Assembly: GCA_034422515.1 (NCBI GenBank)
Contig: DAOUJP010000020.1
Location: 65,590-129,589, forward strand
Source of the DNA: Chloroflexota bacterium
Lineage (GTDB): Bacteria; Chloroflexota; UBA11872; UBA12225; JAJDUF01
Reading direction: 5' to 3'
DNA: 64,000 bases
The notes below the pieces were generated by a model that was given only the letters and a program-made list of their open reading frames with translations, was not told the origin of the DNA and ran no database searches. Position 1 is the stretch's first letter. Each line of letters opens with the position of its first letter. Below are positions 8,719-23,215 of this stretch, in pieces. The position numbers and the translations under genes are program-made.

Positions 8719-8733
8719 GATTTCCGGTCTGTC
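8719..8733 (+). promoter_or_regulatory. Conserved 15-nt motif GATTTCCGGTCTGTC (copy 1), ~70 nt upstream of the sigma-factor operon, followed at +30 by GAGAGTTGG
   Basis: Exact 15-mer repeated at 13692-13706 with the same downstream G(A/G)GTTGG box at +30/+31. Both copies are intergenic and precede an operon start. Confidence 0.5.
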
Positions 8734-8804
8734 TTTCTACGCGCGGTTAAAATTGAGAGTTGGTTGCATCTAGTCACCGAGCAGAACACGCTATGAGTTA
8801 GCAG

Positions 8805-9632
8805 ATGGGCCATGTGACCACAGAGCAAGATACATCGTGCTTGCCGGAGCCATTGACGCGCAAGAACGCGGATGGTGAGGTCTATTGCCGCCAGGCGGCT
8901 GTGGACAGGCAGATCCAGACGGCTCTTGGGCTTGACAGTGGGGAACTCCGAACCCGCTCCGAGGTGACGGACAAAGCGTCGCCCGACTTCCTCAAGGAAG
9001 AGGCGCTGGTCTATCTGATTCGACACTACCACCGGGCAGCGGATCAGGGCTGTGTGAACTTCCTGTCGGAGGCCCTACTTCGCCGCTGTGCCACCTGGAT
9101 CAGTCATCAACTGCACAGCTTGGATAATGAAGCGGCAGAGGAAGGGTATTCGGACGTCGTGACGCGACTGTTCGAACGGATCCTCGACTTAGACAGTGAC
9201 CGCGGCGACTTCCTCCAAGTCCGATTCTGGATGGTACTCAAGAAACTTGCCGTGGATGTCTTTGACAGACAGCTACGGCAGCTCACCCGTGGACGAGACA
9301 GCATCCCTCTGACAACTATTGCCGGACATGACGGCGAAGACGACAAGGCGGCAACACGTGGAGCTCGGTTGCGCACGCCGGGCGCGCTCGCGACACGGGC
9401 CGCCGAATCGGAGGCGATCGAGCGCACCGAAATCCGCGAGGCCCTGAGCCAGTTGGACGAGCCTCTTAGGTCAGCGTTCCTGCTACGGCATTTCGTGGGG
9501 TTGCCGATCGAAGATCAGGACCCAGCCGTGCATACGATTAGCCGGCGCTTCGGCAAGACGCCGCGCACCATCCGGAACTGGCTCGCTAGAGCGGGTAAGT
9601 GCTTGGCAATGTGGCGGGGAGGGCAGGGATGA
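8805..9632 (+). CDS. Sigma-70 family (ECF-like) RNA polymerase sigma factor
   Basis: The C-terminal region-4 HTH (LSQLDEPLRSAFLLRHFVGLPIEDQD...ISRRFGKTPRTIRNWLARAG) matches the sigma-70_r4_2 pattern, and the region-2-like segment is upstream. Its stop overlaps the next gene by 4 nt. Confidence 0.6.
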   Translation: MGHVTTEQDTSCLPEPLTRKNADGEVYCRQAAVDRQIQTALGLDSGELRTRSEVTDKASPDFLKEEALVYLIRHYHRAADQGCVNFLSEALLRRCATWISHQLHSLDNEAAEEGYSDVVTRLFERILDLDSDRGDFLQVRFWMVLKKLAVDVFDRQLRQLTRGRDSIPLTTIAGHDGEDDKAATRGARLRTPGALATRAAESEAIERTEIREALSQLDEPLRSAFLLRHFVGLPIEDQDPAVHTISRRFGKTPRTIRNWLARAGKCLAMWRGGQG

Positions 9633-10273
9633 ACAGACCAACCGAGCCTGAGCGGTTGGAGGGTGTACTCGACGCCTATGTGGCGTCTGGTGCCGGCCCG
9701 AATGCCGCGCTTGACGAGTGGATTCGGCGCTATCCGGAGTTTGAGCGAGAACTAATCGAGTTCGCGGCCAGTTGGAGCCTGATGAAATGGTTGCCTCACG
9801 CTCCTGACGCCGAGGAAGTTGACGAGACAACGCTGGTGCTGCGAGGAATGAGTGTCGTTCAGGACTTGCTCCACAGGCAGTCATCAGAGTCAGCCTCAGA
9901 CCCTGTCACGCCCATCGGGAGTCTGATAACGGAAGGGCGAGCACAAGGTTTGGATCCCCGCCGGTTGGCGCAGGCCGTTGGAGTGGGGGACAGCTTGCTG
10001 AGTAAGCTCGACCGCCGCTTAATCACCCCCGCCTCAATCCCGCAAGAGCTGATCGAGCGCCTTGCACAGGTTACGCAACGCAAGGTTACGACCATCACCG
10101 CCTATCTTCAGCAGGGCCCGACATTGACGGCTGCGGCTGAACATCGCTCCGAGCAAGCACCGAAGCTCATGGAGCCGGAGGATTTCTTTGATGCCGTTGG
10201 CGCCGATCCAACAATCAGTCGTGAGCAGGCTGACTACTGGTTCGCACTTGGGCGATCCATGGGTGCATTATGA
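9629..10273 (+). CDS. XRE-type HTH domain protein (ImmR-like repressor / anti-sigma-like adaptor candidate)
   Basis: Central HTH (LDPRRLAQAVGVGDSLLSKLDRRLI). Its 4-nt ATGA overlaps with the genes on both sides suggest translational coupling in a 3-gene operon. The Met at 9629 is preferred over the track start at 9599. Confidence 0.5.
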   Translation: MNRPTEPERLEGVLDAYVASGAGPNAALDEWIRRYPEFERELIEFAASWSLMKWLPHAPDAEEVDETTLVLRGMSVVQDLLHRQSSESASDPVTPIGSLITEGRAQGLDPRRLAQAVGVGDSLLSKLDRRLITPASIPQELIERLAQVTQRKVTTITAYLQQGPTLTAAAEHRSEQAPKLMEPEDFFDAVGADPTISREQADYWFALGRSMGAL

Positions 10274-13200
10274 GCCACTGGGGCGAAATAAGAAGGCGGG
10301 CGAGGGCGCAACGCGCCGAAGTGCTTCGAGAGACTAGGGGAGACTTGTCAGCTGAATCGTTGCTTACCGCGGCCGAAAGGTTGACCGGCTTCGAACGAAT
10401 CGGCCTGCCAGTTGGCGACTCGTTGCTGGACGGCGCTGATGCAAAACTCCAACACAACATGGAGCGGGTTTGGTTCAACCGCGAAGTCGAACCTAGGCTG
10501 GCTCGCTTCAATCAAGCCCACGAGTATGCACATCTCTGGTTACACCCCGAACGGGGCAACCAGCTAGAGTGTGGCCTTGATCCTGAGGCTGTTGAGGAAC
10601 CCCTACCCATTGGCGTGAATCGAGTAGAGGGGTATGGCCCTGAGGAGTTGCGAGAGCGTGAGGCGAACGTCTTTGCGCGGGAGTTCCTGCTCCCGACCGA
10701 TGTCCTACGCGAGTGGTACGAGACCGATAATGCAAGCGCGAATGAAGTTGCAGATAGACTGGGACTTCCAGAGGGGTTGGTCTTGCAGCAGATGGCGCGG
10801 GCGCTTCTTACGCCAGAAATCCCCTCTACGCACGTATCACCTGGCGATACAGACCAACGACCGTTAGACCCCAGCCAGGAGGAAGCTGCTCACGCCCCAC
10901 GCGGCCCCCTACTCTTGGAGGCCGGTCCAGGTACCGGCAAGACCCGTACCCTCATCGGACGGATCGTCTTTCTTCTTAAGCAAGAGGTGCCACCAACCGC
11001 GATACTTGCACTGACGTTCTCGAACCGCGCAGCTGAGGAGATGCGATCACGTGTGGCGGAGGCCGAACCAGCCGCCGCCCTCCGTATCTGGATTGGGACC
11101 TTTCATGCGTTCGGACTTGAGCTATTGCGCAAGTACGGTACACGACTAGGACTGCCGCCCCATATCAGCGTACTCGACCCATCTGAATCGATAGTCCTTG
11201 TGGAGCGCATGCTGCCCGAGTTGGACTTGGATTACTACCAAAACCTATATGACCCCACCTTCTATCTCCGGGACATCATGGCCGCGATCTCGCGCGCCAA
11301 GGACGAGTTGGTGGGGCCAGAGGAATACGCCGCACTCGCCGAGAGCATGCGCAATGAAGCGGCCACCCCCGAGGAGATCGAGAGGGCAGAGCGGACGATC
11401 GAGGTAGCACGGGTTTACACCGCCTACCAAGCAGCGCTTGACTGCGCCCATCTGCTTGATTTTGGCGACCTCATCTTCAAGGCTGTGTCGCTGCTCAGGG
11501 CACACGCCGATGTGCGAAACGCCCTCCGCAGCAGCTATCGTCACGTCTTGGTCGATGAGTACCAAGATGTCAACCGGGCCAGTGCCCTCCTCCTAAGAGA
11601 GATCGCGGGTGCCGGCGCTGGTCTCTGGGTGGTTGGAGATACGCGGCAGGCGATCTACCGGTTCCGGGGTGCTGCTCCGGCGAACATGCGGCACTTTAGC
11701 GAAGATTTCTCTGGCGCGATAGTGAAGACCCTCCGACGCAACTACCGGTCGCAGCCGGTGATCGTCGACGTGTTCGCCGGGCTGGCGCCTGAGATGCGCG
11801 CGGCACGAGGCGGACCGATCTTCATGCCCTGGGAGCCAAACCGATCGCTCTCCGGTGGGCACGTCTTGATGGAGGTTGCCGACGACCTGACTGCGGAGGC
11901 CGAGGGGTTGGCGAGGGAGATTGAGCGCCGGCACGCCGCCGGCATTCCTTACAGCGAGCAAGCGGTCCTGTGCCGCTCGCACACCAACCTTGGTAGGTTC
12001 GGAGCCGAACTCGAGCGTGTCGGTGTGCCTGTTCTGTACCTAGGCAATCTCTTTGAGCGGCCTGAGGTGCGTGACATGCTTGCCCTTTTGTCCCTCGCGT
12101 GCGAACCAGACGGGAACGGCTTGGTCCGCGTTGCGCGCTTTTCCGAATACAGAATCCCGCTCAACGACGTGCTCGCTCTAATTGAGCTGGCTCGCGACCG
12201 AGAGGTTCCCTTTCCGGAGGCTTTGGGCCTAGCGGGAGAAGCCGCGACGGTCTCGGCGCACGGACAAGCGCGGCTCGCCCTTTTGGCTCATCACCTTGAT
12301 GGTTTGCACCACGTTGGGCCCTGGAGACTGCTCGCGCACTACTTGTTCGACCGAAGCGGCTATCTACATCACCTCTTAGCCGACCAGTCCGTAGGGGGAC
12401 AGCAGCGCCTGCTCGCACTCTATCAACTCCTCCAGTTCGCCCACGAGCAGCGACCAGGGGTTCCCGGTGAGCCAGCCGACTCGAAGCTCCGCCTACTTCG
12501 TTACATTCGCCGGCTCGAGATCTATGGCGAGGAAAAGCCACTCCGGCAGGTACCAGTCTGGGCGGACGATATCGAGGCGGTCCGGCTGCTCACTGTCCAC
12601 GCGAGCAAGGGGCTTGAGTTTCGAGCGGTTTACCTACCGGCACTAGGCCGCGGCATCTTCCCGGCGAGCCGCCAAGCACAGACATGTCCGCCACCCACGG
12701 GTATGCTTGCTCCCGACCACGACGACCTGAGCAACCACGACGAAGAAGAGGAGTGCCTCTTCTTCGTCGCGCTATCCCGCGCTAGAGACATACTGTGCCT
12801 CTCCCGCGCCCGCCGGTACGGTGCCCGGAATAGCAATCCGTCAGCTCTGCTCGTCGAGATCGCTGATCTGTTACCTGCCGATCCGGGTGGCCAAGTTACT
12901 TGGCCATCCAGCGCACCGAGTCCGGCTGCTGCACCTGAGCCGATGCCGGCAAACGAGACTTACTTGGCGGCTGACCTGGACGTATACCTCCGCTGTCCCC
13001 GGCAGTACTTCTACGAGTCTGTTCTGGGGCTGAGTCGCCAGCGTGAGGACTCTGGATACGTCGAGTTTCACCGCTGTGTCTATCGCGTACTGCGCTGGAT
13101 GGCGGAGCAGCGTGCCTCCGGACAACCCGCTGATGAAGCCACGGCACTTGCATACCTAGCCCGGGTCTGGGAGGAGCAAGGGCCGCACGGGCATGTCTAT

Positions 13201-13671
13201 GAGGAGTTGTATCGTAATTCAGCTATTGCTCTGGTGCAGCGGGCGGCAAGACGGCCATTCACGTCACGTGGCGCCAAGACCCAGCCCCAGTGGGAGGTGC
13301 GAGTCCCGCTGGGTCGTGTTCGTTTCGTCCCGGACCACGTCGAGGTACTCAATGATGGCACTGAGATCGTTGAACGTATCCGTACTGGGCGTCCGACGAA
13401 GAGCGAAGCAGGAAAGGACATCTACGCCCTGTACGTGATGGCAGCCCGGGATGCCGAGCCACTCGTTCAACGGAGAGTGCAAGTACGATACTTGTCCACC
13501 GATGACGTGGAGCCAATCAACCTCAAGCCGCGAACCATCAAGACTCGGCTAAACCACTACAACGATGCTATCGCTGGGATCCTGCGCGATGATTTCTCGC
13601 CGCGTCCCAATGACCGTGTCTGTCCGCGCTGTCCTCACTATTTCATCTGTCCGCTAGGCGAGGACGCCTAA
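10270..13671 (+). CDS. Fusion protein: ImmA/IrrE-family Zn metallopeptidase (HEXXH) + UvrD/Rep-family SF1 helicase + C-terminal RecB/Cas4-like PD-(D/E)XK nuclease with an Fe-S cysteine cluster
   Basis: HEYAHLWLH (HExxH, DUF955-like) near the N-terminus. Walker A GPGTGKTRT, motif II VLVDEYQDVN and motif VI VHASKGLEFRAVYL of UvrD-like helicases. The C-terminal domain has an early Cys (YLRCPRQYFYE), a DIYALYV (QhxxY-like) motif and a terminal CPRCPHYFIC triad, as in Cas4/AddB nucleases. Confidence 0.7.
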   Translation: MSHWGEIRRRARAQRAEVLRETRGDLSAESLLTAAERLTGFERIGLPVGDSLLDGADAKLQHNMERVWFNREVEPRLARFNQAHEYAHLWLHPERGNQLECGLDPEAVEEPLPIGVNRVEGYGPEELREREANVFAREFLLPTDVLREWYETDNASANEVADRLGLPEGLVLQQMARALLTPEIPSTHVSPGDTDQRPLDPSQEEAAHAPRGPLLLEAGPGTGKTRTLIGRIVFLLKQEVPPTAILALTFSNRAAEEMRSRVAEAEPAAALRIWIGTFHAFGLELLRKYGTRLGLPPHISVLDPSESIVLVERMLPELDLDYYQNLYDPTFYLRDIMAAISRAKDELVGPEEYAALAESMRNEAATPEEIERAERTIEVARVYTAYQAALDCAHLLDFGDLIFKAVSLLRAHADVRNALRSSYRHVLVDEYQDVNRASALLLREIAGAGAGLWVVGDTRQAIYRFRGAAPANMRHFSEDFSGAIVKTLRRNYRSQPVIVDVFAGLAPEMRAARGGPIFMPWEPNRSLSGGHVLMEVADDLTAEAEGLAREIERRHAAGIPYSEQAVLCRSHTNLGRFGAELERVGVPVLYLGNLFERPEVRDMLALLSLACEPDGNGLVRVARFSEYRIPLNDVLALIELARDREVPFPEALGLAGEAATVSAHGQARLALLAHHLDGLHHVGPWRLLAHYLFDRSGYLHHLLADQSVGGQQRLLALYQLLQFAHEQRPGVPGEPADSKLRLLRYIRRLEIYGEEKPLRQVPVWADDIEAVRLLTVHASKGLEFRAVYLPALGRGIFPASRQAQTCPPPTGMLAPDHDDLSNHDEEEECLFFVALSRARDILCLSRARRYGARNSNPSALLVEIADLLPADPGGQVTWPSSAPSPAAAPEPMPANETYLAADLDVYLRCPRQYFYESVLGLSRQREDSGYVEFHRCVYRVLRWMAEQRASGQPADEATALAYLARVWEEQGPHGHVYEELYRNSAIALVQRAARRPFTSRGAKTQPQWEVRVPLGRVRFVPDHVEVLNDGTEIVERIRTGRPTKSEAGKDIYALYVMAARDAEPLVQRRVQVRYLSTDDVEPINLKPRTIKTRLNHYNDAIAGILRDDFSPRPNDRVCPRCPHYFICPLGEDA

Positions 13672-13691: not shown

Positions 13692-13706
13692 GATTTCCGG
13701 TCTGTC
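13692..13706 (+). promoter_or_regulatory. Conserved 15-nt motif GATTTCCGGTCTGTC (copy 2), ~105 nt upstream of the Ubl-E2-JAB-E1 operon
   Basis: Identical to the motif at 8719-8733 and followed by TTAGGGTTGG at +31. It lies in the intergenic region between the helicase-nuclease gene and the Ubl gene. Confidence 0.5.
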
Positions 13707-13812
13707 CCTGCCCCAGCGATTGTCCTATTAGGGTTGGCAAGTGACACCCTGGCAGTCGCGGAGCGTCACTCACTTCAGCAACCCCACATTCCGTGTGAGA
13801 AAGGACAGACAG

Positions 13813-14334
13813 ATGAGTCAACCTGATGCTACAGACCACATCGAGCTCTTTATCCAGGGCGAGGGGATCCCCAAGATCGCGCTGGTGAAGGTACATCCCG
13901 AGTATACGGTCGCGGACCTCATCAAGGTGGCCCGCGAGCATAGCCTGAGCGTACCCGAGGGATCGGAGGTGTTTGTCCTCCTAGAGAACACCGACGCCCC
14001 CCTGCTGTTGGATGCGAAGATTGATGAGGTCGGCCTAGCCCCACGTAGCCGCGTGCATATCCATCGCTGTCGGCGAGTGGAGGTAACGGTCAATTTCAAC
14101 GCAGATCAACTCAAAGGATTCTTCCCACCATCGGCGACACTCGCGTGGGTCAAGAAGTGGGCAGTCGGCAAGGACGGCTTCGGCATGGCGGATGTGGATG
14201 CCACCGAGCACCTGCTTCAGATGTGCGGCTCGACTGACCGGCCTGACGAGGACGTGCATATCGGCACGCTAGTGAAGCTTTCGAACGGGACCCTTTGTTT
14301 CGATCTGGCCCCCAAACAGCGCGTAGAGGGATAA
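13813..14334 (+). CDS. Ubiquitin-like (tandem beta-grasp, ISG15-like) protein ending in Gly (BilA-like / polyUbl)
   Basis: 173 aa, large enough for two beta-grasp units. The first (HIELFIQGEGIPKIALVKVHPEYTVADLIKVAREHSL...VFVLLEN) resembles ThiS/MoaD/Ub folds. The C-terminal residue is Gly (…RVEG*). It is immediately followed by E2-, JAB- and E1-like genes. Good RBS (AAAGGA) before the ATG at 13813. Confidence 0.55.
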   Translation: MSQPDATDHIELFIQGEGIPKIALVKVHPEYTVADLIKVAREHSLSVPEGSEVFVLLENTDAPLLLDAKIDEVGLAPRSRVHIHRCRRVEVTVNFNADQLKGFFPPSATLAWVKKWAVGKDGFGMADVDATEHLLQMCGSTDRPDEDVHIGTLVKLSNGTLCFDLAPKQRVEG

Positions 14335-14337
14335 GGC

Positions 14338-14826
14338 ATGTCTAAGGGCGTAATGGGGGTAGACGAGCAGGTGTTTCGCGCGCACCTCGCAGCCGGCGCG
14401 TTCCAGAGTGGCGTCGACCGGGGCCGCTGGCGCTTGCTCGCGCTCGACTGGCCACATGCCCTGATCGCCATTCAGGCTGCCGAGAGGGCCGGCGGCCCAG
14501 CCGAATATGCGCTGCGCTTCGAGTGCATGAACTACCCTCAAACACCGCCGACAGCTCAGCCATGGGACGCTGAGAGAAACACGCCGCTTGCACCAGCCCG
14601 CTGGCCAACCGGAACAAGGCGAGTATCGCTTGCCTTCAATCCCGGATGGAAGCACGGGGGCTGCCTATATCTGCCTTGTGACCGGCTTTCGATTGAGGGC
14701 CACGATGCTTGGCGGACCCAGCATCCTTCGATGATCTGGTCGCCAGCGAGCGACATCACACATTACCTGAGGATTGTCCATGATCTTCTCACTTCGAGCG
14801 ATTATTCGGGCCCTCGCGGCGCCTGA
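14338..14826 (+). CDS. E2-like (UBC-fold) ubiquitin-conjugating enzyme homolog (BilB-like)
   Basis: 162 aa with a candidate catalytic Cys in the AFNPGWKHGGCLYLPCD segment (analogous to HPN...C of E2s). Assigned mainly from its conserved position between the Ubl and the JAB/E1 genes. Confidence 0.45.
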   Translation: MSKGVMGVDEQVFRAHLAAGAFQSGVDRGRWRLLALDWPHALIAIQAAERAGGPAEYALRFECMNYPQTPPTAQPWDAERNTPLAPARWPTGTRRVSLAFNPGWKHGGCLYLPCDRLSIEGHDAWRTQHPSMIWSPASDITHYLRIVHDLLTSSDYSGPRGA

Positions 14827-15304
14827 GCACCGGCTGAGTTGTCCCAGAGGAGTCTGGCGACGAGGGATCGCTGAAGTTGCACGCCGGGGAGAGGGACGGC
14901 ACGAGAGTGGCGCCTTCCTGCTTGGTCGCCGGCATGGTCTGCGCGGACACGTCGTGCGATTTGCCTACTACGATGACTTCGACCCATCCTGCCTTAAATC
15001 CGGCATTGTCGTGTTCGATGGAGCGGGGTTCGGACCGCTGTGGCAACTCTGCCGGCAGACCGGGCTGAGTGTCCTTGCCGATCTGCACACGCATGGCGGC
15101 TCTGGCCGGGCACGTCAGAGCGAACTTGACAGGGACAACCCCATGATCGCCCAGCCCGGTCACGTAGCGCTCATCGTCCCGAAATTTGCTCGCGACTTCA
15201 GGATGGAGGATGTGAGTATCTACGAGTACCTCGGTGGTCATAGTTGGCGCGATCACGGCAGTGCCCGTGGTGGGCGCTTCTTCTACACAGGGATATGGGC
15301 ATGA
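14774..15304 (+). CDS. JAB/MPN (JAMM) metalloprotease, deubiquitinase-like (BilD-like)
   Basis: Complete JAMM motif: upstream Glu (HESGAFLLG), then HTHGGSGRARQSELD (HxHx8Sx2D). The ORF overlaps the E2 gene and the true start may be downstream. Its stop overlaps the E1 start (ATGA). Confidence 0.65.
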   Translation: MSMIFSLRAIIRALAAPEHRLSCPRGVWRRGIAEVARRGEGRHESGAFLLGRRHGLRGHVVRFAYYDDFDPSCLKSGIVVFDGAGFGPLWQLCRQTGLSVLADLHTHGGSGRARQSELDRDNPMIAQPGHVALIVPKFARDFRMEDVSIYEYLGGHSWRDHGSARGGRFFYTGIWA

Positions 15305-16701
15305 CAGTTACCTCAAACGTTGGACCGGATCAGTTGCACCGGCTCGTGAAGTTGGCGCTCGACACCGGCGAGGCAGCGAGCCTCGATGAGGCCCAGCGGC
15401 TCTTTGGTAGCTATCGCCTCGGCATCGTGGTCGGAAGCGATATCGCGCATTCCCCGACGCTGCAGGCAGCCGTGTTGACCGCCGTCAACGCGGGCCGTCG
15501 CAGTTTTCTTGGTGGTGTGTCCGTCGACGGCGCAGTTGATGTGCCGCTCCTCATCCCGTGGGGTCGCTGTCGCACGCTAGAGGAAGCCATCGTGGACCTA
15601 CGGGGGACCAGCATGGCTGTTGTCCCCGGGATTCCGCGCATCGTGATCGGCGACACATCCGCACCGTCAGGCGAGGCGGAGTTCGCCGTGCGCGCGACTT
15701 TCGATGGGTGGTGTGGGGGCATCATACCTCTTGACCAAGGTCACCGTCTGCCAGAGCGCCAAGAGTGTGTTCCGGCCGGTGTGCTCGCCGGGGCGCTCGG
15801 AGTTGCCGAGGCATTTCAGTTCGTGCGGGGCGACAGCGCTATTGCGGGCCGGCGGGATGTTGGGCTGTCATTGTGGCAACCTGAAGCCGACACCAATTGG
15901 CTCGCTGCTGGCGAGCGGGGGCCGACTTTGGAGAGGCTGCCAGCGAGAGCTTGGCTGATCGGCCTCGGTCATCTTGGGCAGGCGTTTCTGTGGACACTCG
16001 GACTCCTGCCATATGCGGCGCCTGGAGACGTGAGTCTCGTCCTCCAAGACTTCGATGCACTCGTCGAGGCAAACGACAGTACCTCACTACTCACGACACG
16101 GGCTAGCTTCGGTGTGAAGAAGACACGGGCCATGGCCCGCTGGTGCGAAGCGCGCGGGTTCCGCACTTCGATTGTGGAACGCCGATTCGCTGCCGACTTT
16201 CGGGTTGCGGCAGACGAACCAAGCGTTGCCCTGTGTGGAGTTGACAACGCGCTGGCCCGAGCCGACCTCGAGGATGTTGGCTTCGGCCGCGTCATTGAGG
16301 CCGGGCTCGGCGCTGGCACGCGGGAGTACCTTGCGTTTCAGATACACACTTTCCCGGCACGCCGAGCCGCGAGATGCCGCTGGGGAGCGGACGTAGATCA
16401 CTTGAACGACGGGAATGACAATGCCGATAATCCGGCGTACCGCGCATTAGCCCACGAGGGGCTCGATGATTGTGGAATCACGACGCTGGCCGGACGCACT
16501 GTCGGCGCGTCATTTGTGGGAGCGGTCACGGCCGCAGTGGTCGTCGCCGAACTCATGAGGATGGCAATGGGTGGACCCCGATACGAGGTCGTGGATGGGA
16601 GCCTGCACTCACTTGAACTGCGCCAGGCGGTGGTGTGTGCCGAAGGGGCACCGTTCAATCCAGGAACGGCGGCTGCAACTCTCAAGACCGACGGTCAGTG
16701 A
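15301..16701 (+). CDS. E1-like ubiquitin-activating enzyme (ThiF/MoeB/HesA superfamily; BilC-like)
   Basis: Rossmann GxGxxG (AWLIGLGHLGQAFLWTLGLL) and ThiF-like downstream segments (GVDNALARADLEDVGFGRVIEAGLGAG). Co-operonic with the Ubl, E2 and JAB genes. Confidence 0.6.
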   Translation: MTVTSNVGPDQLHRLVKLALDTGEAASLDEAQRLFGSYRLGIVVGSDIAHSPTLQAAVLTAVNAGRRSFLGGVSVDGAVDVPLLIPWGRCRTLEEAIVDLRGTSMAVVPGIPRIVIGDTSAPSGEAEFAVRATFDGWCGGIIPLDQGHRLPERQECVPAGVLAGALGVAEAFQFVRGDSAIAGRRDVGLSLWQPEADTNWLAAGERGPTLERLPARAWLIGLGHLGQAFLWTLGLLPYAAPGDVSLVLQDFDALVEANDSTSLLTTRASFGVKKTRAMARWCEARGFRTSIVERRFAADFRVAADEPSVALCGVDNALARADLEDVGFGRVIEAGLGAGTREYLAFQIHTFPARRAARCRWGADVDHLNDGNDNADNPAYRALAHEGLDDCGITTLAGRTVGASFVGAVTAAVVVAELMRMAMGGPRYEVVDGSLHSLELRQAVVCAEGAPFNPGTAAATLKTDGQ

Positions 16702-17096: not shown

Positions 17097-20000
17097 TTGG
17101 ATACTGCTACCGTGATCTGTGAAGGACAGGTGCTGACCGGGCCGCTGTTCAGCGAGCCGATGCGGGTGGAGACGGTGCGCCCCAACGGCCCCGATTCCGT
17201 GGAGGCCGGCTTGGTCGGGCAGCAGACGGAGCGGTTCCGGCGGGTGACGCTGACGGCAGCCGACATCGCAAGCCTCTCCGTCGCCAGTGCTGCGCTTACC
17301 TACGACGGAGACGGACAACTCCTGCGGCTCGGCCTCCAGGCGTATACCCTCGGCATCGCCCACGAGTTCGACCCCTACTTCGGCCTCTCCATCTCGCGGG
17401 TGGACCCGCTGCCCCATCAACTCGAAGCGGTCTACGACTACTTCATGAAGCTCCCCAGCGTGCGGTTCCTGCTGGCCGATGATGCCGGTGCCGGCAAGAC
17501 GATTATGGCTGGCCTGTTGATCCGCGAGCTCAAGCTGCGTGGGTTGGCCGAGCGGACTCTGGTCGTGTGCCCAGCCAACCTGACCTTTCAGTGGCAGCGC
17601 GAGTTGAAAGAGAAGTTCGATCAGCAGTTCCTGGTACTGAAGGGGAGCGATGTCCGCGACCAGTTTGGCGTCAACCAATGGCTCAGCCAAAAGCAGGTGA
17701 TTACTTCCCTCGATCTGGCCAAGCGCGAGGATATCTTGCCGGGCTTGCGACAGGTGCGCTGGGACCTGGTCATCGTAGATGAGGCCCATCGCATGTCAGC
17801 GCGAGACGAGACGCACAAGAGCCAACGCTACCGGCTGGGCGAGCTCCTCCGGGACAGCGCCGACAACTTGCTGCTTCTGACCGCCACGCCGCACAAGGGC
17901 GATCCGCACAACTTCACCCTCTTCCTGCAATTGCTCGACCAGGACGCCTATGCCGACGTGCAGTCCATCCGCGCGGCGATGGATAAGCAGCAGGCGCCCT
18001 TCTACCTGCGACGGACGAAGGAGGCGATGGTCTACTTCCCAGAACGTCAGCCGGACGGGGAGTGGGCCGCCCGGCCCGTGTTCACGAAGCGGATCACCCA
18101 CACGGCTGGCTTTGCTATCGCCGGGGATGAGTTCGAGCTGTACCAGGAGGTGACGCGGTTCGTGAAGCGGCAGAGTGCCCGCGCGGCGGCGCAGGGTGAC
18201 GACCGGCGAGCACGCGCCGTCGGCTTCCTCATGTCCCTCTACCAGCGGCGGCTCGCTTCCAGCACCTACGCCATGCGCCGCTCCCTGGAAAATCGGGCGA
18301 AGCGCCTGGCGGAGAACCTCAAGCAGGCCGAGGTCCTGGCACGGACAGTACCGCCCGACTTCTCCAACTGGGAAGCGGAGGAGTTCGAGGAGCTAGAGGA
18401 CCACGAACGCGAGCGCTTGGAGCGACTGCTGGACGCCGTCACGCTGGCCCGCAACGCCGAGGAGGTGCGCCGGGAGATCACGGCGTTGCAGGGCCTCGCC
18501 AGCACAGCCAAGTCCCTCGAAGGGTCCGGGAGCGAAGCGAAGTTGAGCCGGCTCAAGGAAATACTGCGCGAGCAAGGATTCTTCGACCACCCGGACCAGC
18601 AGTTGCTCATCTTCACCGAGTTCAAGGACACCCTCGACTACCTCCTGGAACGGTTGCAGGCCTGGGGGTTCCGCGTGGGAAGCATCCATGGCGGCATGAA
18701 GCCGGGGTCACGCGACGAACCAGGCACCCGGCTCTACACCGAGCAACAGTTCCGGGAGGGCGCCATCCAGGTGCTGGTGGCCACCGAGGCCGCCGGCGAG
18801 GGCATCAACCTCCAGTGCTGCCACATCCTCTTCAACTACGATATTCCCTGGAACCCCAATCGGCTGGAACAGCGTATGGGACGTATCCACCGCTACGGCC
18901 AGCGCTTCGATTGTCTCATCTTCAACTTTGTGGCCACCAACACCATCGAGGGCCGCGTGCTCCAGCGGCTGCTCGATAAGCTCCAAGAGATCAGGGACGC
19001 CCTCGAAGATGATGCCGTCTTCAATGTCGTCGGGGAGGTGTTGCCCGCCGCTCACGTGGATCGCGTGTTTCGGGACTACTACGCTGGCCACCTGGGCGAC
19101 GCTGACCTGGAAGACCGGCTCCTGCGGGACGTGGACGAGCGCCACTTCCGGGCCATTTGCCAGAATGCGCTGGAGGGGTTGGCGGCCAAGGGGCTCAACC
19201 TGGAGCTGCTCGTCGAGCGCCGCGCCCGCGCCCAAGCGCGCCGGATGGTGCCCGAGACCATCGCCCGCTTCCTGGCCGAGAGTGCTGGCAGCGCGTCCCT
19301 CCCCCTTCCCCCCGTGCGCCGCTGGCCACACACGTTTCAGCCGGGCCGGACGCCAACCGCCTTGCGGCGCTACGAGGGCGAGCCGGACTGGCAGCTCCCG
19401 GCGCTGGCGGTGCGCTACCCGCGAATTTCGACGGACCGGCACACGGCGGAAGCGCACAATCTGGAATGGGTTACGCCCGGCCATCCACTGTTCGAAGCCC
19501 TGCGCCGCCACGACCTGGAGCTGGCCCGGGAGGCCTTCGCCAGGGGGGCCTGCTTCCACTCCCTCCAACACGAGACCCCGGCGCGCCTCGACTGCTACAA
19601 GGCGCAGATCGTGGACGGCCTCGGCCACATCATCCATGAGCGGCTGTTCACCGTGGAGTTGGCGGAAGGCCGAGAACCCCGCCTCCGGGAGCCGGACATC
19701 CTCGGCAACCTGACGCCTGCCGCCGCCCCGGACGGCTTGCCTGCCGTGGCTACCCTGCCGGAAGCGACCGAGTGGCTGCACTCGGAGACGCTCGGACCGT
19801 TCATTGACGAGGTGCGTGCGGAGCGCCTGCCGGAGGTCGAGCGTATCGCCGATCATGTCGAAGTGGCCTTGGGCGAGGTGCTGTCCCGAGTTGACCAGGA
19901 GGTCGGCCGCGCCGGCGACGAGGTGCGGAATCAGATCACCGGTGCCGAGGGCCGCTTCGCCCAGGCCGAGGCCCGGCAGGATGAGGCACTGGCACGCCGC

Positions 20001-20540
20001 GAGCGGCGACGGCGCGAACTGACCCAGCAACGGGCGCTGACGCTCCAGGGCGTGGAGCGGCTGGCCAGCGTGCTGATCCTCCCACATCCTGAACGGGGCA
20101 GTGACGAGGTCCAACGGCTGCGGCCCAACCCGGAGACCGAGCAGGTCGCCATGCGCGTGGTCATGGCGCACGAGCAGGCCCAGGGACATCTCGTCACCGA
20201 CGTTCACGAGCAGAACCTGGGCTACGACGTGACCAGCTTGAATAAGGAGACCGGCGAGTCGCGCCTGATCGAGGTGAAGGGCTTGGCCGCTGCCGCTGGC
20301 ACTATCCTGCTGACGCCCAACGAGCGCCGCGTGGCGGAAGACCGCCGCGATTGCTACTGGCTGTACGTCGTCACGAATTGCGCCAGAGAGCCGCGGCTCC
20401 AGGACCCGATCCGGGACCCGGCCCGGTTCCCCTGGCACGAGGTCAGCAAGGTGCAGCATTATTGGCTGGAGCTGAACGCCATGACCCAACCCATGCAGAT
20501 CCGAGAGCAACGGGCGCCATACGGAGGACGGGACTCTTGA
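17097..20540 (+). CDS. SNF2-family helicase with a C-terminal DUF3883-like restriction-endonuclease-fold domain ('anti-phage-associated helicase')
   Basis: TTG start with a GAGAGGA RBS. SNF2 motifs: ADDAGAGKT (I), LVIVDEAHRMS (II), LLLTATPHKG (III), helicase-C (QRMGRIHRYGQ). The C-terminal TPNERRVAEDRRDCYWLYVVTNC...DPARFPWHEV matches DUF3883. Confidence 0.7.
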   Translation: MDTATVICEGQVLTGPLFSEPMRVETVRPNGPDSVEAGLVGQQTERFRRVTLTAADIASLSVASAALTYDGDGQLLRLGLQAYTLGIAHEFDPYFGLSISRVDPLPHQLEAVYDYFMKLPSVRFLLADDAGAGKTIMAGLLIRELKLRGLAERTLVVCPANLTFQWQRELKEKFDQQFLVLKGSDVRDQFGVNQWLSQKQVITSLDLAKREDILPGLRQVRWDLVIVDEAHRMSARDETHKSQRYRLGELLRDSADNLLLLTATPHKGDPHNFTLFLQLLDQDAYADVQSIRAAMDKQQAPFYLRRTKEAMVYFPERQPDGEWAARPVFTKRITHTAGFAIAGDEFELYQEVTRFVKRQSARAAAQGDDRRARAVGFLMSLYQRRLASSTYAMRRSLENRAKRLAENLKQAEVLARTVPPDFSNWEAEEFEELEDHERERLERLLDAVTLARNAEEVRREITALQGLASTAKSLEGSGSEAKLSRLKEILREQGFFDHPDQQLLIFTEFKDTLDYLLERLQAWGFRVGSIHGGMKPGSRDEPGTRLYTEQQFREGAIQVLVATEAAGEGINLQCCHILFNYDIPWNPNRLEQRMGRIHRYGQRFDCLIFNFVATNTIEGRVLQRLLDKLQEIRDALEDDAVFNVVGEVLPAAHVDRVFRDYYAGHLGDADLEDRLLRDVDERHFRAICQNALEGLAAKGLNLELLVERRARAQARRMVPETIARFLAESAGSASLPLPPVRRWPHTFQPGRTPTALRRYEGEPDWQLPALAVRYPRISTDRHTAEAHNLEWVTPGHPLFEALRRHDLELAREAFARGACFHSLQHETPARLDCYKAQIVDGLGHIIHERLFTVELAEGREPRLREPDILGNLTPAAAPDGLPAVATLPEATEWLHSETLGPFIDEVRAERLPEVERIADHVEVALGEVLSRVDQEVGRAGDEVRNQITGAEGRFAQAEARQDEALARRERRRRELTQQRALTLQGVERLASVLILPHPERGSDEVQRLRPNPETEQVAMRVVMAHEQAQGHLVTDVHEQNLGYDVTSLNKETGESRLIEVKGLAAAAGTILLTPNERRVAEDRRDCYWLYVVTNCAREPRLQDPIRDPARFPWHEVSKVQHYWLELNAMTQPMQIREQRAPYGGRDS

Positions 20541-22255
20541 CCCCAGAACGCCTCCAGGCACTCATCGCCGGCGGCGAAACCCTCGCCGTAGAGTTCAAAG
20601 GCGAGGCGGCCGCGCCCTTGGGGGATCGGGAGCTTGTCGAAACGGTCGTCTGTCTGGCTAACCGGAGCGACGACGGCCCCGGCTGGCTGCTGGTCGGAGT
20701 TGAGGATGACGGCCACGTGAGCGGCGCCCGTGCCCGCCACGAGACCGGGGGGATCGACCCCGTGCGTATCCAGGCGCTCGTGGCGAACCGCACGCGCCCC
20801 CCGCTTACCACGCGCGTCGCAGTGGATTCGAGCGGCGGACGGGATATCCTCATCATCGAGGTCCCCGCCGTTCACCGGCCCGTCGGTACGGCGGACGGAC
20901 GCTACCTGCGGCGCGCCATCGGCGGAGATGGCAAGCCATCCTGTGTGCCGTTCCACTTCCACGAGATGCAGTCGCAGCAGGCTGATCGCGGGATGCTCGA
21001 TCATGCTGCACTCCGGCTGGACGGCATCGGGATGGACGCGCTCGATCCGCTGGAGTTCGAACGCTACCGGCGCACAATCCGAGAGCACCGGCACCGTGGG
21101 GACAACGCGTTGCTCGATCTCAGCGACGTGGAACTGGCCAAGGCCCTGGGCGCGGTGGAGCACACCAATGGTGCCGTGACCGTCCGGGTGCTGGGCCTGC
21201 TGCTCTTCGGACGGGAGGACGCGCTGGCTGCCGCCCTGCCGGCGCACGAGGTGGCGTTCCAGGTGCTCGCCGGCAACGACGTGCAGGTCAACGACTTCTT
21301 GCGCTGGCCGCTGCTCCGGGTCATGGAAGAGCTGGCGGCCCGCTTTGAGGCGCGCAACCGCGAGCAAGAGGTCCACGTGGGCATGATCCGCGTCGGAGTG
21401 CCCGATTATCCCGCCCGCGCTTTTCGCGAGGGGGTCGCCAATGCCTTGATCCACCGGGATTACACCCGTCTTGGGGCCGTGCATGTGCAGTGGCGGGAAG
21501 ACCGGCTGGAAATCTCGAACCCCGGCGGCTTCCCGCTGGGAGTGCGCCTGGACAACCTGCTGGTCACTGCGCCGCGCCCCCGCAATCCGCTGCTGGCCGA
21601 TGCGTTCAAGCGCGCCGGCATCGTCGAACGCACCGCGCGGGGCATTGATACCATCTTCTACGAACAGCTTCGCAATGGCCGCCCCGCCCCCTCCTACGAC
21701 CGCAGCACCGAGGCCGGCGTGACCCTGGTGCTCCCCGGCGGCGTAGCCCACCTCGGATTCGTGCGGCTCGTGGTGGAGGCGGGCCGGGAGAGCAGCCCGC
21801 TTTCCCCGGACGAGCTGCTGCTCCTGACCGGGTTACAGCGGGAGCAGCACATAACGGCCGGCGAGGCAGCCGCAATGATACAAAGGGGGGCAGCGGATGC
21901 GGAGCATCTCCTGATGCAGTTGGGGCAGCGCGGTCTCGTCACCGTGCGGGGTTCGCACCGGCGGCAGGGGTTCCGGCTATCGGAAGCTGCGGCCCGGCAG
22001 CTTGGTGACCGCGTGGATGCCCAGCGCGGGCGCGCTGCACCAATCCGGCATGACGAGCTGGTGCGCCGGTACGTTGCGAGTCATGGCTCGATTTCACGCA
22101 AGGAAGCCGCGCGGCTCTGCGCCATCTCCGACTCGCGGGCCTATAGACTGTTGAAGCGGCTGGAGTCGGCCGGGGTCCTCCGGCGCATTGGCACACGCGG
22201 CCGGAACGTCCGCTATGAGCAAAACGCCGAGAAACGCACGGCGCGCGTTTCCTAA
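20537..22255 (+). CDS. AlbA_2 (Schlafen-like 'divergent AAA') + HATPase_c_4 domain protein (putative nucleic-acid-binding regulator)
   Basis: The N-terminal ETLAVEFKGE signature is typical of AlbA_2 (PF04326). The C-terminal part is winged-helix-like. The TTG start at 20537 overlaps the helicase stop (TTGA). Confidence 0.55.
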   Translation: MTPERLQALIAGGETLAVEFKGEAAAPLGDRELVETVVCLANRSDDGPGWLLVGVEDDGHVSGARARHETGGIDPVRIQALVANRTRPPLTTRVAVDSSGGRDILIIEVPAVHRPVGTADGRYLRRAIGGDGKPSCVPFHFHEMQSQQADRGMLDHAALRLDGIGMDALDPLEFERYRRTIREHRHRGDNALLDLSDVELAKALGAVEHTNGAVTVRVLGLLLFGREDALAAALPAHEVAFQVLAGNDVQVNDFLRWPLLRVMEELAARFEARNREQEVHVGMIRVGVPDYPARAFREGVANALIHRDYTRLGAVHVQWREDRLEISNPGGFPLGVRLDNLLVTAPRPRNPLLADAFKRAGIVERTARGIDTIFYEQLRNGRPAPSYDRSTEAGVTLVLPGGVAHLGFVRLVVEAGRESSPLSPDELLLLTGLQREQHITAGEAAAMIQRGAADAEHLLMQLGQRGLVTVRGSHRRQGFRLSEAAARQLGDRVDAQRGRAAPIRHDELVRRYVASHGSISRKEAARLCAISDSRAYRLLKRLESAGVLRRIGTRGRNVRYEQNAEKRTARVS

Positions 22256-22343
22256 ACGCACTCGTGCTATTAAACGCACGCGAACGGCTCATTAGCAGCG
22301 GCCGCTCAACTGGAGAGGGCATCCGATTCTCAGGAAGGTTTGA

Positions 22344-23210: not shown

Positions 23211-23215
23211 ATGAC

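Follow-up and report, generated by a model that had tools for sequence, protein, structure and literature searches.

The window, a 64 kb stretch of DNA, carried at 13813–16701 four tightly packed genes on the + strand, in the order bilA-bilB-bilC-bilD. The gene bilA (13813–14334, 173 aa) was preceded by an AAAGGA ribosome-binding site 8 nt upstream of its start and encoded a product ending in ...KQRVEG. It was followed, after a 3-nt gap, by bilB (14338–14826, 162 aa), which encoded an E2-like conjugating enzyme, by bilC (14780–15304, 174 aa), which overlapped bilB by 47 nt, and by bilD (15301–16701, 466 aa), whose start lay in a 4-nt ATGA overlap with the bilC stop. For the latter two genes the preferred starts were ATG 14780, located after a GAGGA, and ATG 15301, within frames that were open from TTG 14774 and TTG 15244, respectively. 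All four products gave full-length matches to PADLOC profiles that were far beyond chance (BilA 7.8e-47, BilB 1.5e-66, BilC 6.8e-61, and BilD 6.5e-170). The original prediction had described a complete Ubl-E2-JAB-E1 operon of the Bil antiphage kind; its four open reading frames were all present at these coordinates and on the + strand, and the profile matches, folds and conserved residues agreed with that reading.

The AF2 model of BilA (pLDDT 89.4) predicted tandem beta-grasp domains at residues ~10–84 and ~89–167, followed by a flexible tail running to Gly173, in line with the beta-grasp fold that had been proposed for it. Its best PDB matches in Foldseek were ISG15, linear di-ubiquitin, the OASL tandem Ubl, and FAT10, and its precomputed Pfam assignment was PF27055 (BilA_UBL_2). 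Gly173, the C-terminal glycine claimed earlier, was invariant, and in 48 of 49 homologues it formed the C-terminus. The model of BilB (pLDDT 90.5) had the expected UBC/E2 fold, with the crystallised Ensifer E2 BilB (8tyz_C/8tz0_C) ranked first by Foldseek, ahead of PEX4, Ube2W, UbcH7, and Ubc12, and the sequence matched Pfam DUF7665/BilB-like (1.5e-61). The candidate catalytic cysteine of the original prediction was Cys114 (context LYLPCDR), and alignment of 42 homologues showed it to be invariant, together with His122 and His129.

BilC was assigned as a JAB/JAMM deubiquitinase. The HxHx8Sx2D motif noted in it earlier was found as H103-T-H105-x8-S114-x2-D117, with Glu42 upstream, and Glu42, His103, His105, Ser114, and Asp117 were each at least 97% conserved among 57 homologues. 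The Pfam match was to Prok-JAB (1e-3), and the solved Ensifer DUB (BilC, 8tyx_B) gave a weak direct match (E 1.4e-3). BilD was assigned as an E1 activating enzyme, with an N-terminal half corresponding to the inactive-adenylation-like BilD_N (precomputed PF27312) and a C-terminal half forming the active adenylation domain. The latter contained the predicted GxGxxG as G221-L-G223-H-L-G226, as well as Asp250, Lys274/Arg276, Asp315, and the candidate catalytic Cys391. These residues, with the Mg-binding Asp among them, and Arg14 were invariant in 31 homologues, proteobacterial ones included. Over residues 208–324 the BilD family profile matched the adenylation domains of ThiF, UBA3, and Uba1.

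The stretch 13813–16701 was almost certainly an intact type I BilABCD system, a kind already known. It had the same Ubl-E2-JAB-E1 order as the type I system of Collimonas sp. OK412 (Millman et al. 2022; Hor, Wolf & Sorek 2024), a two-beta-grasp BilA ending in Gly, conserved E2 and E1 cysteines, an intact JAMM motif and nucleotide-binding loop, and four full-length PADLOC matches; unlike the tested type I systems, it was a copy on a high-GC metagenome scaffold from an uncultured source, and its nearest relatives were Chloroflexota-like. Assignment to type II BilABCD (CEHH/6C; Chambers et al. 2024, Ensifer aridi; PDB 8TYX, 8TYZ, 8TZ0) or to 6E/Bub instead was exceedingly unlikely. Type II has the same Ubl-E2-DUB-E1 gene order and chemistry, its E2 was the structurally closest protein and best superposition for the BilB model, and BilC shares the JAMM core and matched the type II DUB directly, if weakly. 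However, the solved Ensifer Ubl has one beta-grasp domain vs. two in this BilA, and type II Ubls carry residues past the Gly that the DUB must remove, whereas BilA ended exactly at Gly; in addition, Ensifer BilA, BilB, and BilD gave no sequence match, the family profiles for BilB and BilD included. Bub (6E/DUF6527) is likewise a bacterial Ubl conjugation pathway, with Ser/Tyr oxyesters, fused Ubl-E2 / JAB-E1 or E2-E1 proteins, and a DUF6527 serine protease (Ye et al., preprint 2024). None of these features was present in the window, which had no DUF6527 gene and no fused genes, and the catalytic positions were Cys rather than Ser/Tyr; of the earlier "Bil/6E-like" label, the Bil part was retained and the 6E part was dropped. 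It was scarcely credible that the genes formed a sulfur-carrier or cofactor pathway, comprising a ThiF/MoeB-type adenylase, a ThiS/MoaD-like protein, and a JAB peptidase, with no part in conjugation or defence. Such a reading could draw on E. coli ThiF, the solved structure to which the adenylation domain was most closely related by detectable sequence similarity (E 3e-3), and on "ThiF family adenylyltransferase" being a frequent RefSeq label of the homologues. It was contradicted by the dedicated E2 with an invariant Cys, the tandem ISG15-like Ubl, the extra N-terminal domain of BilD, and its invariant Cys ~75 residues past the Mg-binding Asp. Moreover, no thiamine, molybdopterin or cysteine biosynthesis genes lay nearby, where the neighbours were Hma and helicase-protease genes, and homologous operons give phage protection.

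An antiphage function of this operon is suggested by experiments on proteobacterial homologues; the BilD sequences of the compared proteobacterial plasmids, from genera related to the tested hosts, were only 36–48% identical to the one described here. In Collimonas, mutations at G163, C113, D115, G219, and C385 abolish defence; these positions corresponded to G173, C114, D117, the G221–G223 loop, and C391, matched by motif context and near-identical position only. By analogy with the Collimonas and Ensifer systems, BilD would adenylate the C-terminal Gly173 of BilA, which would then be held as a thioester on Cys391 and handed to Cys114 of BilB. BilB would, without an E3, conjugate BilA to lysine residues on a structural protein of the phage, which in the studied case was the central tail fibre, where progeny virions were tail-less or blocked. 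BilC would strip BilA off conjugates; since Gly is already the last residue of BilA, it would not have to be matured by cleavage.

Directly upstream of bilA, three further genes were located on the + strand. The gene at 8805–9632 encoded a putative ECF-like sigma factor of 275 aa that combined sigma2-like and sigma4 regions with an N-terminal extension of ~85 aa specific to its family. It matched Pfam Sigma70_r4_2 (2.9e-8) and, over residues 103–265, TIGR02937 sigma70-ECF (1.8e-7; 30.9 bits, below the cutoff of 42.9), and its family profile matched E. coli sigmaE, an ECF sigma (8z6g), and a sigma-H factor in the PDB (E 4e-4 to 8e-4); the class assignment is putative since it was built on sub-threshold sequence matches. 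The next gene (9629–10273), whose start overlapped the sigma stop (ATGA), encoded a 214-aa partner, a putative cytoplasmic anti-sigma with a conserved N-terminal domain of ~85 aa, a weakly XRE-HTH-like middle part, and a conserved C-terminal tail. HTH_31 or HTH_3 matches were obtained for 7 of 26 members of its family (best E 4.8e-4), and by alignment its N-terminal domain was shared with a second architecture of 334–343 aa, in loci L043, L049, L051, and L056. No credible relative of the partner was found in the PDB, and no similarity to known anti-sigma domains was detectable. The third gene (10270–13671), again with an ATGA overlap with the preceding stop, encoded a 1133-aa protein in which an M78 (ImmA/IrrE) metallopeptidase was fused to a UvrD/PcrA-type SF1 helicase and a Cas4/AddB-like domain (Pfam Peptidase_M78 5.5e-12, UvrD-helicase 1.6e-69, UvrD_C 1.8e-28, and PDDEXK_1 3.3e-13). 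The HEXXH residues H84, E85, and H88 were kept in 29–30 of 30 homologues, Walker A and B were conserved, and the four cysteines of the Cas4/AddB-like PD-(D/E)XK domain (Cys909, Cys1118, Cys1121, and Cys1127) were kept in 28–29 of 30, while the (D/E)xK triad was not evident in the family alignment.

The association of these genes with Bil extended well beyond the window. Flanks of 5.4 kb or more were available for 33 metagenomic or genomic loci, all nearest relatives of this BilB and not independent samples; in 23 of them the full trio lay directly upstream of bilA, and in 5 more the UvrD gene was present. The distance from trio to bilA ranged from 112 to 275 nt. The same layout occurred on Rhizobium, Xanthomonas, and Variovorax plasmids, where BilD was only 42–46% identical. 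In other type I Bil loci the slot upstream of bilA was occupied by an HTH gene and a stand-alone ImmA/IrrE peptidase, or by the sigma gene with a different partner sharing the N-terminal domain. The trio also preceded a multiubiquitin-ThiF-DUF6527 operon on Agrobacterium and Acinetobacter plasmids, and a multiubiquitin-ThiF operon without an annotated DUF6527 on a Mesorhizobium plasmid. The neighbourhood had been described earlier as a mobile defence island. This was only partly shown: a complete Hma system adjoined Bil downstream, and genes for a primase, a Rad52-like protein, and a large serine recombinase lay at 30–41 kb in the window.

Putative sigma-dependent promoters, proposed from conservation and position of the sequence motif, were located on the + strand upstream of both transcription units. 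The promoter of the regulator operon (8722–8749) lay 83 nt upstream of the sigma start codon and consisted of the -35-like element TTCCGGTCT (8722–8730), 13 nt, and the -10-like element CGGTTA (8744–8749). That of bilABCD (13695–13722), 118 nt upstream of the bilA start codon, had the same -35-like TTCCGGTCT (13695–13703), 13 nt, and the -10-like CGATTG (13717–13722); 15 nt (GATTTCCGGTCTGTC) were identical between the two. TTCCGGTYT, the -35-like part of the bipartite motif TTCCGGTYT-N13-CGATTG, had exactly two occurrences in the 64 kb, one preceding the sigma gene and the other preceding bilA. The motif was present upstream of bilA, at 52–140 nt (mostly 83–140 nt), in 50 of 63 loci, which were likewise nearest relatives of this BilB rather than independent samples, and TTCCG[GCA]T preceded the sigma gene in 28 of 29 loci. 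The background was 341 sites in 1.57 Mb, or ~0.06 expected per 260 nt. The -10-like half varied by clade (CGATTG vs. GGTACTTA), yet it agreed between both promoters of one locus, and this agreement held on plasmids too. None of the loci identified as lacking a sigma gene had the bipartite motif, and neither the sigma gene nor bilA had a detectable sigma-70-type promoter upstream. The 5' leader of bilA contained a small hairpin (CACAT-TCC-GTGTG, 13785–13797, + strand) directly before the ribosome-binding site. A stem of at least 4 bp ending 7–20 nt before the bilA start was present in 34 of 44 distinct loci, compared to a mean of 18.7 and a maximum of 26 in shuffles, and the stems differed in sequence from locus to locus.

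The original suggestion that the operon was wired to a sigma/HTH/peptidase module gained support from the synteny and the common promoter motif. It is likely that in this lineage the Bil operon is the output of a seven-gene cassette in which the ECF-like sigma drives its own operon and bilA via the look-alike promoters. From this we infer a dedicated, autoregulated sigma switch, with the sigma probably released by proteolysis. How release would come about can be outlined only tentatively, by a joint reading that is possible but somewhat short of probable: the 214-aa protein would keep the sigma inactive; the 1133-aa protein would use its helicase/nuclease-like part to sense phage DNA ends, ssDNA or DNA damage, and would then cut the 214-aa partner with its M78 peptidase. 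The released sigma would give rise to positive feedback and a burst of Bil expression. The protease-release step was proposed by analogy with ImmA/ImmR, IrrE/DdrO, CapP/CapH, and CalpL/CalpT/CalpS. Tested type I Bil systems were run from an arabinose promoter (Millman et al. 2022; Hor, Wolf & Sorek 2024), under which the four Bil genes alone protect E. coli, and this fits a regulatory rather than a catalytic role for the upstream trio.

A rather improbable alternative is that the trio is a separate Gabija-like or AddAB-like helicase-nuclease defence system that is only a neighbour of an independently expressed bilABCD. The helicase core matched PADLOC GajB profiles strongly (1.4e-77), a 141-nt gap separates the trio from the bil genes, and clustering of defence genes has causes other than co-function. 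Nevertheless, the pairing was kept both in Chloroflexota-like metagenomes and on plasmids of alpha-, beta-, and gamma-proteobacteria, where the helicase protein was 34–39% identical, whereas the downstream Hma was not conserved beside Bil. The motif shared by the sigma gene and bilA, covarying within loci, the occurrence of the trio before Bub-type Ubl operons, and the filling of its slot by HTH and ImmA genes in other Bil loci also argue for a functional link. Repression is a more serious contender, though still unlikely: the 214-aa protein would be a CapH/ImmR-like, M78-cleaved repressor of both promoters, and the sigma-like protein a LuxR/sigma4-type activator or accessory factor. XRE repressors are the classic substrates of M78 peptidases, the 214-aa family gave weak XRE-type HTH matches in its central part, both type II Bil and Bub occur in association with CapP/CapH, and on some plasmids the sigma-like gene bears the RefSeq label of a "LuxR family" regulator or "response regulator". 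Against this, the family profile of the sigma-like protein aligned to sigma2 and sigma4 of sigmaE-type proteins, beyond the HTH; its gene and that of the partner are translationally coupled, as in sigma/anti-sigma pairs; and the conserved DNA element was bipartite, with promoter-like spacing and no palindrome. Furthermore, the N-terminal domain of the partner is constant while its C-terminal half is swapped, in keeping with a fixed module for sigma binding that receives variable inputs.

The proposed sigma switch has partial counterparts in known systems. CapH/CapP, ImmR/ImmA, and DdrO/IrrE each combine an XRE repressor with an ssDNA- or damage-activated M78 peptidase, and CapH/CapP, divergently transcribed, are the known regulators of type II Bil. 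Like the CapH/CapP group, the present locus has an M78 protein with a conserved HEXXH upstream of an immune operon, beside a small, weakly XRE-HTH-like protein, and the stand-alone HTH and ImmA pair in the same slot of another type I Bil locus resembles ImmR/ImmA. Unlike in that group, the peptidase shares one polypeptide with a UvrD helicase and a Cas4-like domain, cassette and operon run in the same direction, the cassette includes an ECF-like sigma that has two promoters of its own, and the constant part of the partner is a non-HTH N-terminal domain. In CalpL/CalpT/CalpS the sigma is released by a signal-activated protease. CalpL/CalpT/CalpS (type III CRISPR) and DdvS/DdvA (CBASS-CRISPR island) follow the same logic of immunity under a dedicated ECF sigma restrained by an anti-sigma. 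They differ in their unrelated partner proteins and in using a cOA-activated Lon-SAVED protease or a transmembrane anti-sigma as sensor, in contrast to the helicase/nuclease-linked M78 protein and the ubiquitin-like conjugation output described here. The sigma, partner, and M78-UvrD genes with their common promoters set this copy apart from published type I descriptions; the accessible Bil literature contained no mention of such a cassette, and no description of a sigma switch for Bil was found in the searchable literature. Taken whole, the explanation of a Bil operon under dedicated regulation is likely to hold, and the apparent sigma control, here and in most relatives, is the less ordinary part of an otherwise known Bil system.

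All four open reading frames of the conjugation operon named in the original prediction were present on the plus strand between 13813 and 16701, in the order Ubl (bilA, 13813–14334), E2 (bilB, 14338–14826), JAB (bilC, 14780–15304) and E1 (bilD, 15301–16701). They were co-directional and tightly packed, as in type I BilABCD operons, with a 3-nt gap between bilA and bilB, a 47-nt overlap between bilB and bilC and a 4-nt overlap between bilC and bilD, indicating that bilABCD forms one translationally coupled unit. Behind an AAAGGA site, the bilA gene opens with ATG 13813, and its last codons read GAG GGA TAA. For bilC, ATG 14780 behind a GAGGA site was considered likelier than TTG 14774, and for bilD, ATG 15301, which shares an ATGA overlap with the bilC stop codon, likelier than TTG 15244. 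An independent gene call on a Logan contig made both choices, and the ENA gene call agreed on the bilD start. The public ENA annotation of the source scaffold lacks bilC and has a 150-aa antisense ORF in its place (10977–11429 in L001, the retrieved copy of this locus; approximately 14789–15241 of the window, minus strand), so that after automated annotation the operon appears as three genes. In the Logan assembly of the same sample, bilC was called correctly.

Profile searches assigned each product to its Bil family over nearly the full length of the model: PADLOC BilA (E 7.8e-47, positions 3–162 of 162), BilB (1.5e-66, 2–157 of 159), BilC (6.8e-61, 4–167 of 168) and BilD (6.5e-170, 5–451 of 453). 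Pfam placed BilB in DUF7665/BilB-like (1.5e-61) and found Prok-JAB in BilC (1e-3). The precomputed Pfam annotation of the source contig listed BilA_UBL_2, BilB-like and BilD_N; the first and last of these come from that annotation, as the Pfam version searched directly contained no BilA or BilD model. An NCBIfam search gave no match for any of the four proteins. Against PDB sequences, phmmer gave no useful match for BilA, BilB or BilD and found a solved Ensifer protein only with BilC (8tyx_B, E 1.4e-3); a BilB profile found nothing there, and the Ensifer BilA, BilB and BilD were not matched by sequence from the proteins of the window. Since the type II system is too distant by sequence, structure prediction and Foldseek were used.

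The predicted folds bore out the Ubl and E2 assignments. An AlphaFold2 model of BilA (49-sequence alignment, pLDDT 89.4) consists of two beta-grasp units, at approximately residues 10–84 and 89–167, followed by a loose tail, and its top PDB matches were ISG15, linear di-ubiquitin, the tandem Ubl of OASL, and FAT10. BilB (42 sequences, pLDDT 90.5) was modelled with an E2/UBC fold; its three best structure matches were E2 chains of the Ensifer Bil E1–E2–Ubl crystals 8TYZ and 8TZ0 (8tyz_C/8tz0_C), followed by PEX4, Ube2W, UbcH7, Ubc12 and other eukaryotic E2s. Residues 208–324 of BilD aligned, as a family profile, to the adenylation domains of ThiF, UBA3 and Uba1, and the sequence annotation assigned the N-terminal half of the protein to the BilD_N family.

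The catalytic residues were conserved throughout. BilA ends in ...RVEG*. All 49 sequences have this glycine (Gly173), and 48 of them end with it; the other one is extended. The candidate catalytic cysteine of BilB, Cys114 (LYLPCDR), is invariant in 42 sequences, as are His122 and His129, and Glu42, His103, His105, Ser114 and Asp117 of BilC are at least 97% conserved among 57 sequences from related loci. In BilD, Arg14, G221xG223xxG226, Asp250, Lys274, Arg276, Asp315 and Cys391 are invariant in 31 sequences, proteobacterial plasmid copies included. At the level of sequence, these features agree with the predicted E1 layout of an inactive and an active adenylation domain, an ATP loop and a catalytic Cys on an insertion (IAD/AAD/CYS). 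Mutation of BilA G163, BilB C113, BilC D115, BilD G219 or BilD C385 abolished defence in the Collimonas system, and motif context and near-identical numbering, rather than a sequence alignment, suggest that the catalytic positions of the window are the counterparts of these essential residues.

By analogy with its homologues, the operon would work as a complete conjugation pathway. BilD would adenylate Gly173 of BilA and then carry it as a thioester on Cys391, BilA would be handed to Cys114 of BilB, and BilB would join it to a target lysine with no E3. BilC would undo the conjugation; a role in maturation would be unnecessary, because BilA already ends in Gly. In Collimonas, BilA targets the central tail fibre of the phage, and phage progeny lack tails or are blocked. 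Collimonas and four further proteobacterial operons are the only cases in which protection from phage by conjugation of BilA to a phage structural protein is known.

Two types of Bil were distinguished by Chambers et al.: type I, the Millman/Hor family, whose Ubl has two domains and ends in Gly, and type II (CEHH/6C), in which residues follow the Gly of the Ubl and the DUB is needed for maturation. The core of the original prediction, a Bil-type conjugation operon, was correct, and the operon matched type I on every testable feature; it is a type I BilABCD, a distant instance of an already known system. Type II was ruled out, as BilA ends at Gly and the position matching the CEHH glutamate (E120) varies in the BilB alignment. 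The additional label "6E" was wrong in detail. Systems of that kind, now named Bub, work through Ser/Tyr oxyesters and encode a DUF6527 serine protease; their genes are fused, and the Ubl–E2 and JAB–E1 or E2–E1 products lack a catalytic Cys in E1 and E2, whereas Cys114 and Cys391 are invariant here. No DUF6527 match was found within or adjoining the operon, and with four separate genes and both cysteines in place, Bub was rejected. A sulfur-carrier pathway was likewise discarded in view of the E2, the ISG15-like Ubl and the lack of cofactor genes nearby, and pseudogene decay in view of the absence of frameshifts and the intactness of every catalytic residue. Among 2.9 million viral contigs only two matches were found, indicating that Bil of this clade is not typically phage-borne.

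Three translationally coupled genes lie upstream of bilA. The first encodes a sigma-like protein of 275 aa (8805–9632), matched by Sigma70_r4_2 (2.9e-8) and by TIGR02937 across sigma2 and sigma4 (1.8e-7). The PDB matches of its family profile were sigmaE (1or7/6jbq), an ECF sigma (8z6g) and a sigma-H factor (6in7), a weak but consistent sigma2–sigma4 alignment to sigmaE-type proteins. The second gene, whose start codon overlaps the sigma stop codon (ATGA), encodes a 214-aa partner protein (9629–10273). Members of this family share an N-terminal domain of approximately 85 aa, followed in the standard form by a conserved tail, and the family profile yielded only noise against the PDB (designed repeat proteins and coronavirus spike heptad repeats). 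No similarity of the partner to known anti-sigma domains was detected. A second architecture was observed in four retrieved loci (L043, L049, L051 at 7875–8906 and L056 at 8274–9278): the sigma gene is followed by a gene for a 334–343-aa protein that has only the N-terminal approximately 85 aa in common with the 214-aa protein, carries an unrelated C-terminal domain of approximately 230 aa instead, and is not accompanied by the third gene.

That third gene (10270–13671) encodes an 1133-aa fusion of an M78/ImmA-IrrE peptidase, a UvrD/PcrA helicase and a Cas4-like PD-(D/E)XK domain. Its HEXXH motif, Walker A and B motifs and four Fe-S-type cysteines are conserved among 30 homologues, and a (D/E)xK triad was not evident in their alignment. 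The Cas4/AddB-like domain (residues ~900–1133; listed at 11000–13671 of the window) retains the four cysteines and an aspartate (D1022), and the family consensus reads R-R-L-R-T-G-R where (D/E)xK is expected. As judged from these residues, the domain may bind DNA ends without cutting.

The association of this trio with Bil was assessed by mapping all seven proteins on 3 loci retrieved from genomes with a single BilD sequence as query and 80 retrieved from metagenomes with the BilB alignment. Among the 33 loci with at least 5.4 kb before bilA, 23 carried the whole trio, 4 the partner and the helicase protein, 1 the helicase protein only and 2 the sigma gene with a different partner, and 3 carried none of these. 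Where at least 500 bp of flank was available (61 loci), the helicase gene ended 112–516 nt before bilA in 42, in all but one of these within 275 nt. HmaA, which lies downstream of the operon in the window, was not conserved beside Bil in the retrieved loci, indicating that the trio–Bil pairing is not general island clustering. The seven-gene layout was also annotated on Rhizobium leguminosarum pRL11, Xanthomonas euvesicatoria pLMG930.2 and a Variovorax plasmid, whose BilD proteins are 42–46% identical, and the BilD and helicase matches had adjacent coordinates in eleven further plasmid records. On Paraburkholderia caffeinilytica plasmid p1 (locus L093, 5267–9383), a small HTH gene and a gene for a stand-alone ImmA/IrrE peptidase fill the slot upstream of a type I Bil operon, both co-directional with it. 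This operon adjoins an imuA-imuB-dnaE2 SOS mutagenesis cassette.

The two gene groups share a sequence element. The 141-nt gap before bilA holds GATTTCCGGTCTGTC, and the same 15 nt stand 83 nt ahead of the sigma start codon; these two sites are the only ones in the whole 64 kb with TTCCGGTYT. Across the retrieved loci, TTCCG[GCA]T preceded bilA by 52–140 nt (mostly 83–140 nt) in 50 of 63 loci and the sigma gene, mostly by 57–88 nt, in 28 of 29, against 341 sites elsewhere in 1.57 Mb on both strands, or approximately 0.06 expected per 260-nt region. Anchored alignments gave the consensus atTTCCGGTTT-N13/14-cGATTga. The clade with the alternative partner has the second, −10-like element as GGTACTTA at both promoters of each locus. 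Both promoters read CTTTCCGGGTT...GCGATCAA on the Rhizobium plasmid and TTCCGATT...CTGCGACTT on the Xanthomonas plasmid, and the Variovorax plasmid has a TTCCGATTCC element at both, followed by near-identical −10-like halves. The bipartite motif was present in none of the loci identified as having no sigma gene, and no sigma-70-like promoter was found at the bilA or sigma site. A duplicated bipartite element with promoter-like spacing that covaries within loci looks like the picture of an autoregulated alternative-sigma regulon, and the comparison of loci thus offers strong evidence for a putative promoter dedicated to bilABCD and controlled by the sigma factor.

Directly before the bilA ribosome-binding site, a short GC-rich hairpin was observed (13785–13797), with an equivalent at the same position in the retrieved loci L003–L085. 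It was found in 34 of 44 distinct loci (shuffled sequences: mean 18.7, maximum 26), also in loci without the sigma cassette, and its stems vary by locus (CACAT/GTGTG, CCCAC/GTGGG, CGCCC/GGGCG, TGCC/GGCA). It may act on mRNA stability or on translation.

The trio also occurs apart from Bil. Among plasmids, the best matches to the 1133-aa protein without a BilD neighbour had sigma-sized and partner-sized genes upstream. On plasmids of Agrobacterium tumefaciens (locus L089, 5522–13007) and Acinetobacter lwoffii (L090, 5420–12627), genes annotated as multiubiquitin domain, ThiF family and DUF6527, a Bub-type arrangement, come after the trio. On a Mesorhizobium huakuii plasmid (L091, 5475–12862), multiubiquitin, hypothetical and ThiF genes followed, with no annotated DUF6527. 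Its position before multiubiquitin–ThiF operons indicates that the cassette appears to be linked to Ubl conjugation systems in general. The regulators named in the Bil and Bub literature searched are CapH/CapP, CapW/BrxR and CapK/CapS. Neither this literature nor the 2006 survey of prokaryotic Ubl operons mentions a sigma factor or helicase as a Bil or Bub regulator, and no description of a sigma/UvrD/M78 cassette with Bil or Bub was found in the open-access papers and preprints searched.

In IrrE/DdrO and CapP/CapH, the M78 peptidase cuts its XRE-type partner once DNA is damaged or ssDNA is bound; ImmA/ImmR is a further example of such a pair. Together with the architecture of the partner and the HTH/ImmA genes in the same slot on the Paraburkholderia plasmid, these precedents suggested, as the simplest model, a three-step switch. 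The constant N-terminal domain of the 214-aa family would bind the sigma factor, and the variable remainder would serve as input. The helicase/nuclease-like module would contact phage or damaged DNA, the fused M78 domain would then cut the partner, and the freed sigma factor would amplify its own expression and that of Bil. The protease step is the weakest link of this model. Such a switch agrees with the observation that the four Bil genes suffice for defence when an arabinose promoter drives them. In logic it is like CalpL/CalpT/CalpS and DdvS/DdvA, but the proteins are different.

CapH/CapP, found with 15% of type II Bil operons and 31% of Bub operons, pair an XRE-HTH repressor with a stand-alone M78 peptidase and are usually transcribed divergently from the immune operon. 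The window has an M78 domain with HEXXH, but this domain is part of a fusion with a helicase and a nuclease-like domain, co-directional with the operon and accompanied by a sigma gene, and the HTH signal of the partner is weak (XRE-type in 7 of 26 members of the standard form, best E 4.8e-4), so that the trio differs from regulators of the CapH/CapP type. A repressor model, instead of release of a sigma factor, is a live alternative for the trio. It is possible, if somewhat short of probable, that the trio is an undescribed and widespread sensing and transcription switch dedicated to bacterial Ubl conjugation systems, in which a DNA-engaging helicase activates a fused metalloprotease that destroys a cytoplasmic anti-sigma factor and frees a private ECF-like sigma factor. 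The Ubl machinery would thus be made only in infected or DNA-damaged cells, as interferon induces ISG15 and its enzymes.

The cassette lies in a stretch that the original prediction had called a mobile defence island. The defence island part held, with the Bil cassette beside a complete Hma system; mobility is plausible, and no attachment sites were found. Housekeeping genes (ZIP transporter, dehydrogenase, Ldh_2, EamA) extend to 7529, and the next one begins at 41108. Between them, a region at 7637–8109 holds an orphan VapB-like antitoxin ORF of 126 aa (PF09957, 2.6e-5; no toxin gene adjoining) and, after it, a strong intrinsic-terminator-like hairpin (8088–8109), which is followed by approximately 600 nt without an obvious gene up to the sigma promoter. 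Directly downstream of bilD, the Hma system (17097–29753) comprises HmaA (17097–20540; SNF2 helicase and NOV_C, 4e-175), HmaB (23159–26191; DUF1156 adenine methylase, 6.6e-115) and HmaC (26955–29753; AAA+/DUF499, 6.3e-96), with an AlbA_2/HATPase_c_4/HTH gene (~20537–22255) and an unannotated 288-aa ORF (22344–23210) inserted between HmaA and HmaB. Further downstream, genes for an SF2 helicase (30127–32427), a DUF6094 methyltransferase (32609–33646), a Rad52/22-like annealing protein (34997–35755) and a DnaG-like primase with a CHC2 zinc finger and Toprim (35994–37052) lie on the minus strand, followed by a large serine recombinase on the plus strand (39303–40889). In its gene content, this segment (30127–40889) resembles the part of an integrative element that serves replication and integration, and the island may be an insertion of approximately 33 kb between 7.6 and 41 kb. 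The G+C content was 0.58–0.65 over the defence genes (8–27 kb), 0.71–0.77 over 30127–40889 and approximately 0.67–0.73 in most flanks.

As a textbook case of a defence system described in 2022–2024, bilABCD itself adds only a distant, non-proteobacterial member to the family; the control circuit around it was moderately surprising. The trio precedes type I Bil across several phyla, and all functional studies of type I Bil have used an artificial promoter. For the native timing of the Ubl machinery, the comparative evidence supplies testable parts: two putative, motif-defined promoters, a private sigma factor, a candidate anti-sigma factor and a protease–helicase fusion. A switch that acts in the proposed way would be a bacterial counterpart of infection-induced ISG15 expression and a new coupling of DNA sensing to immune-gene transcription.
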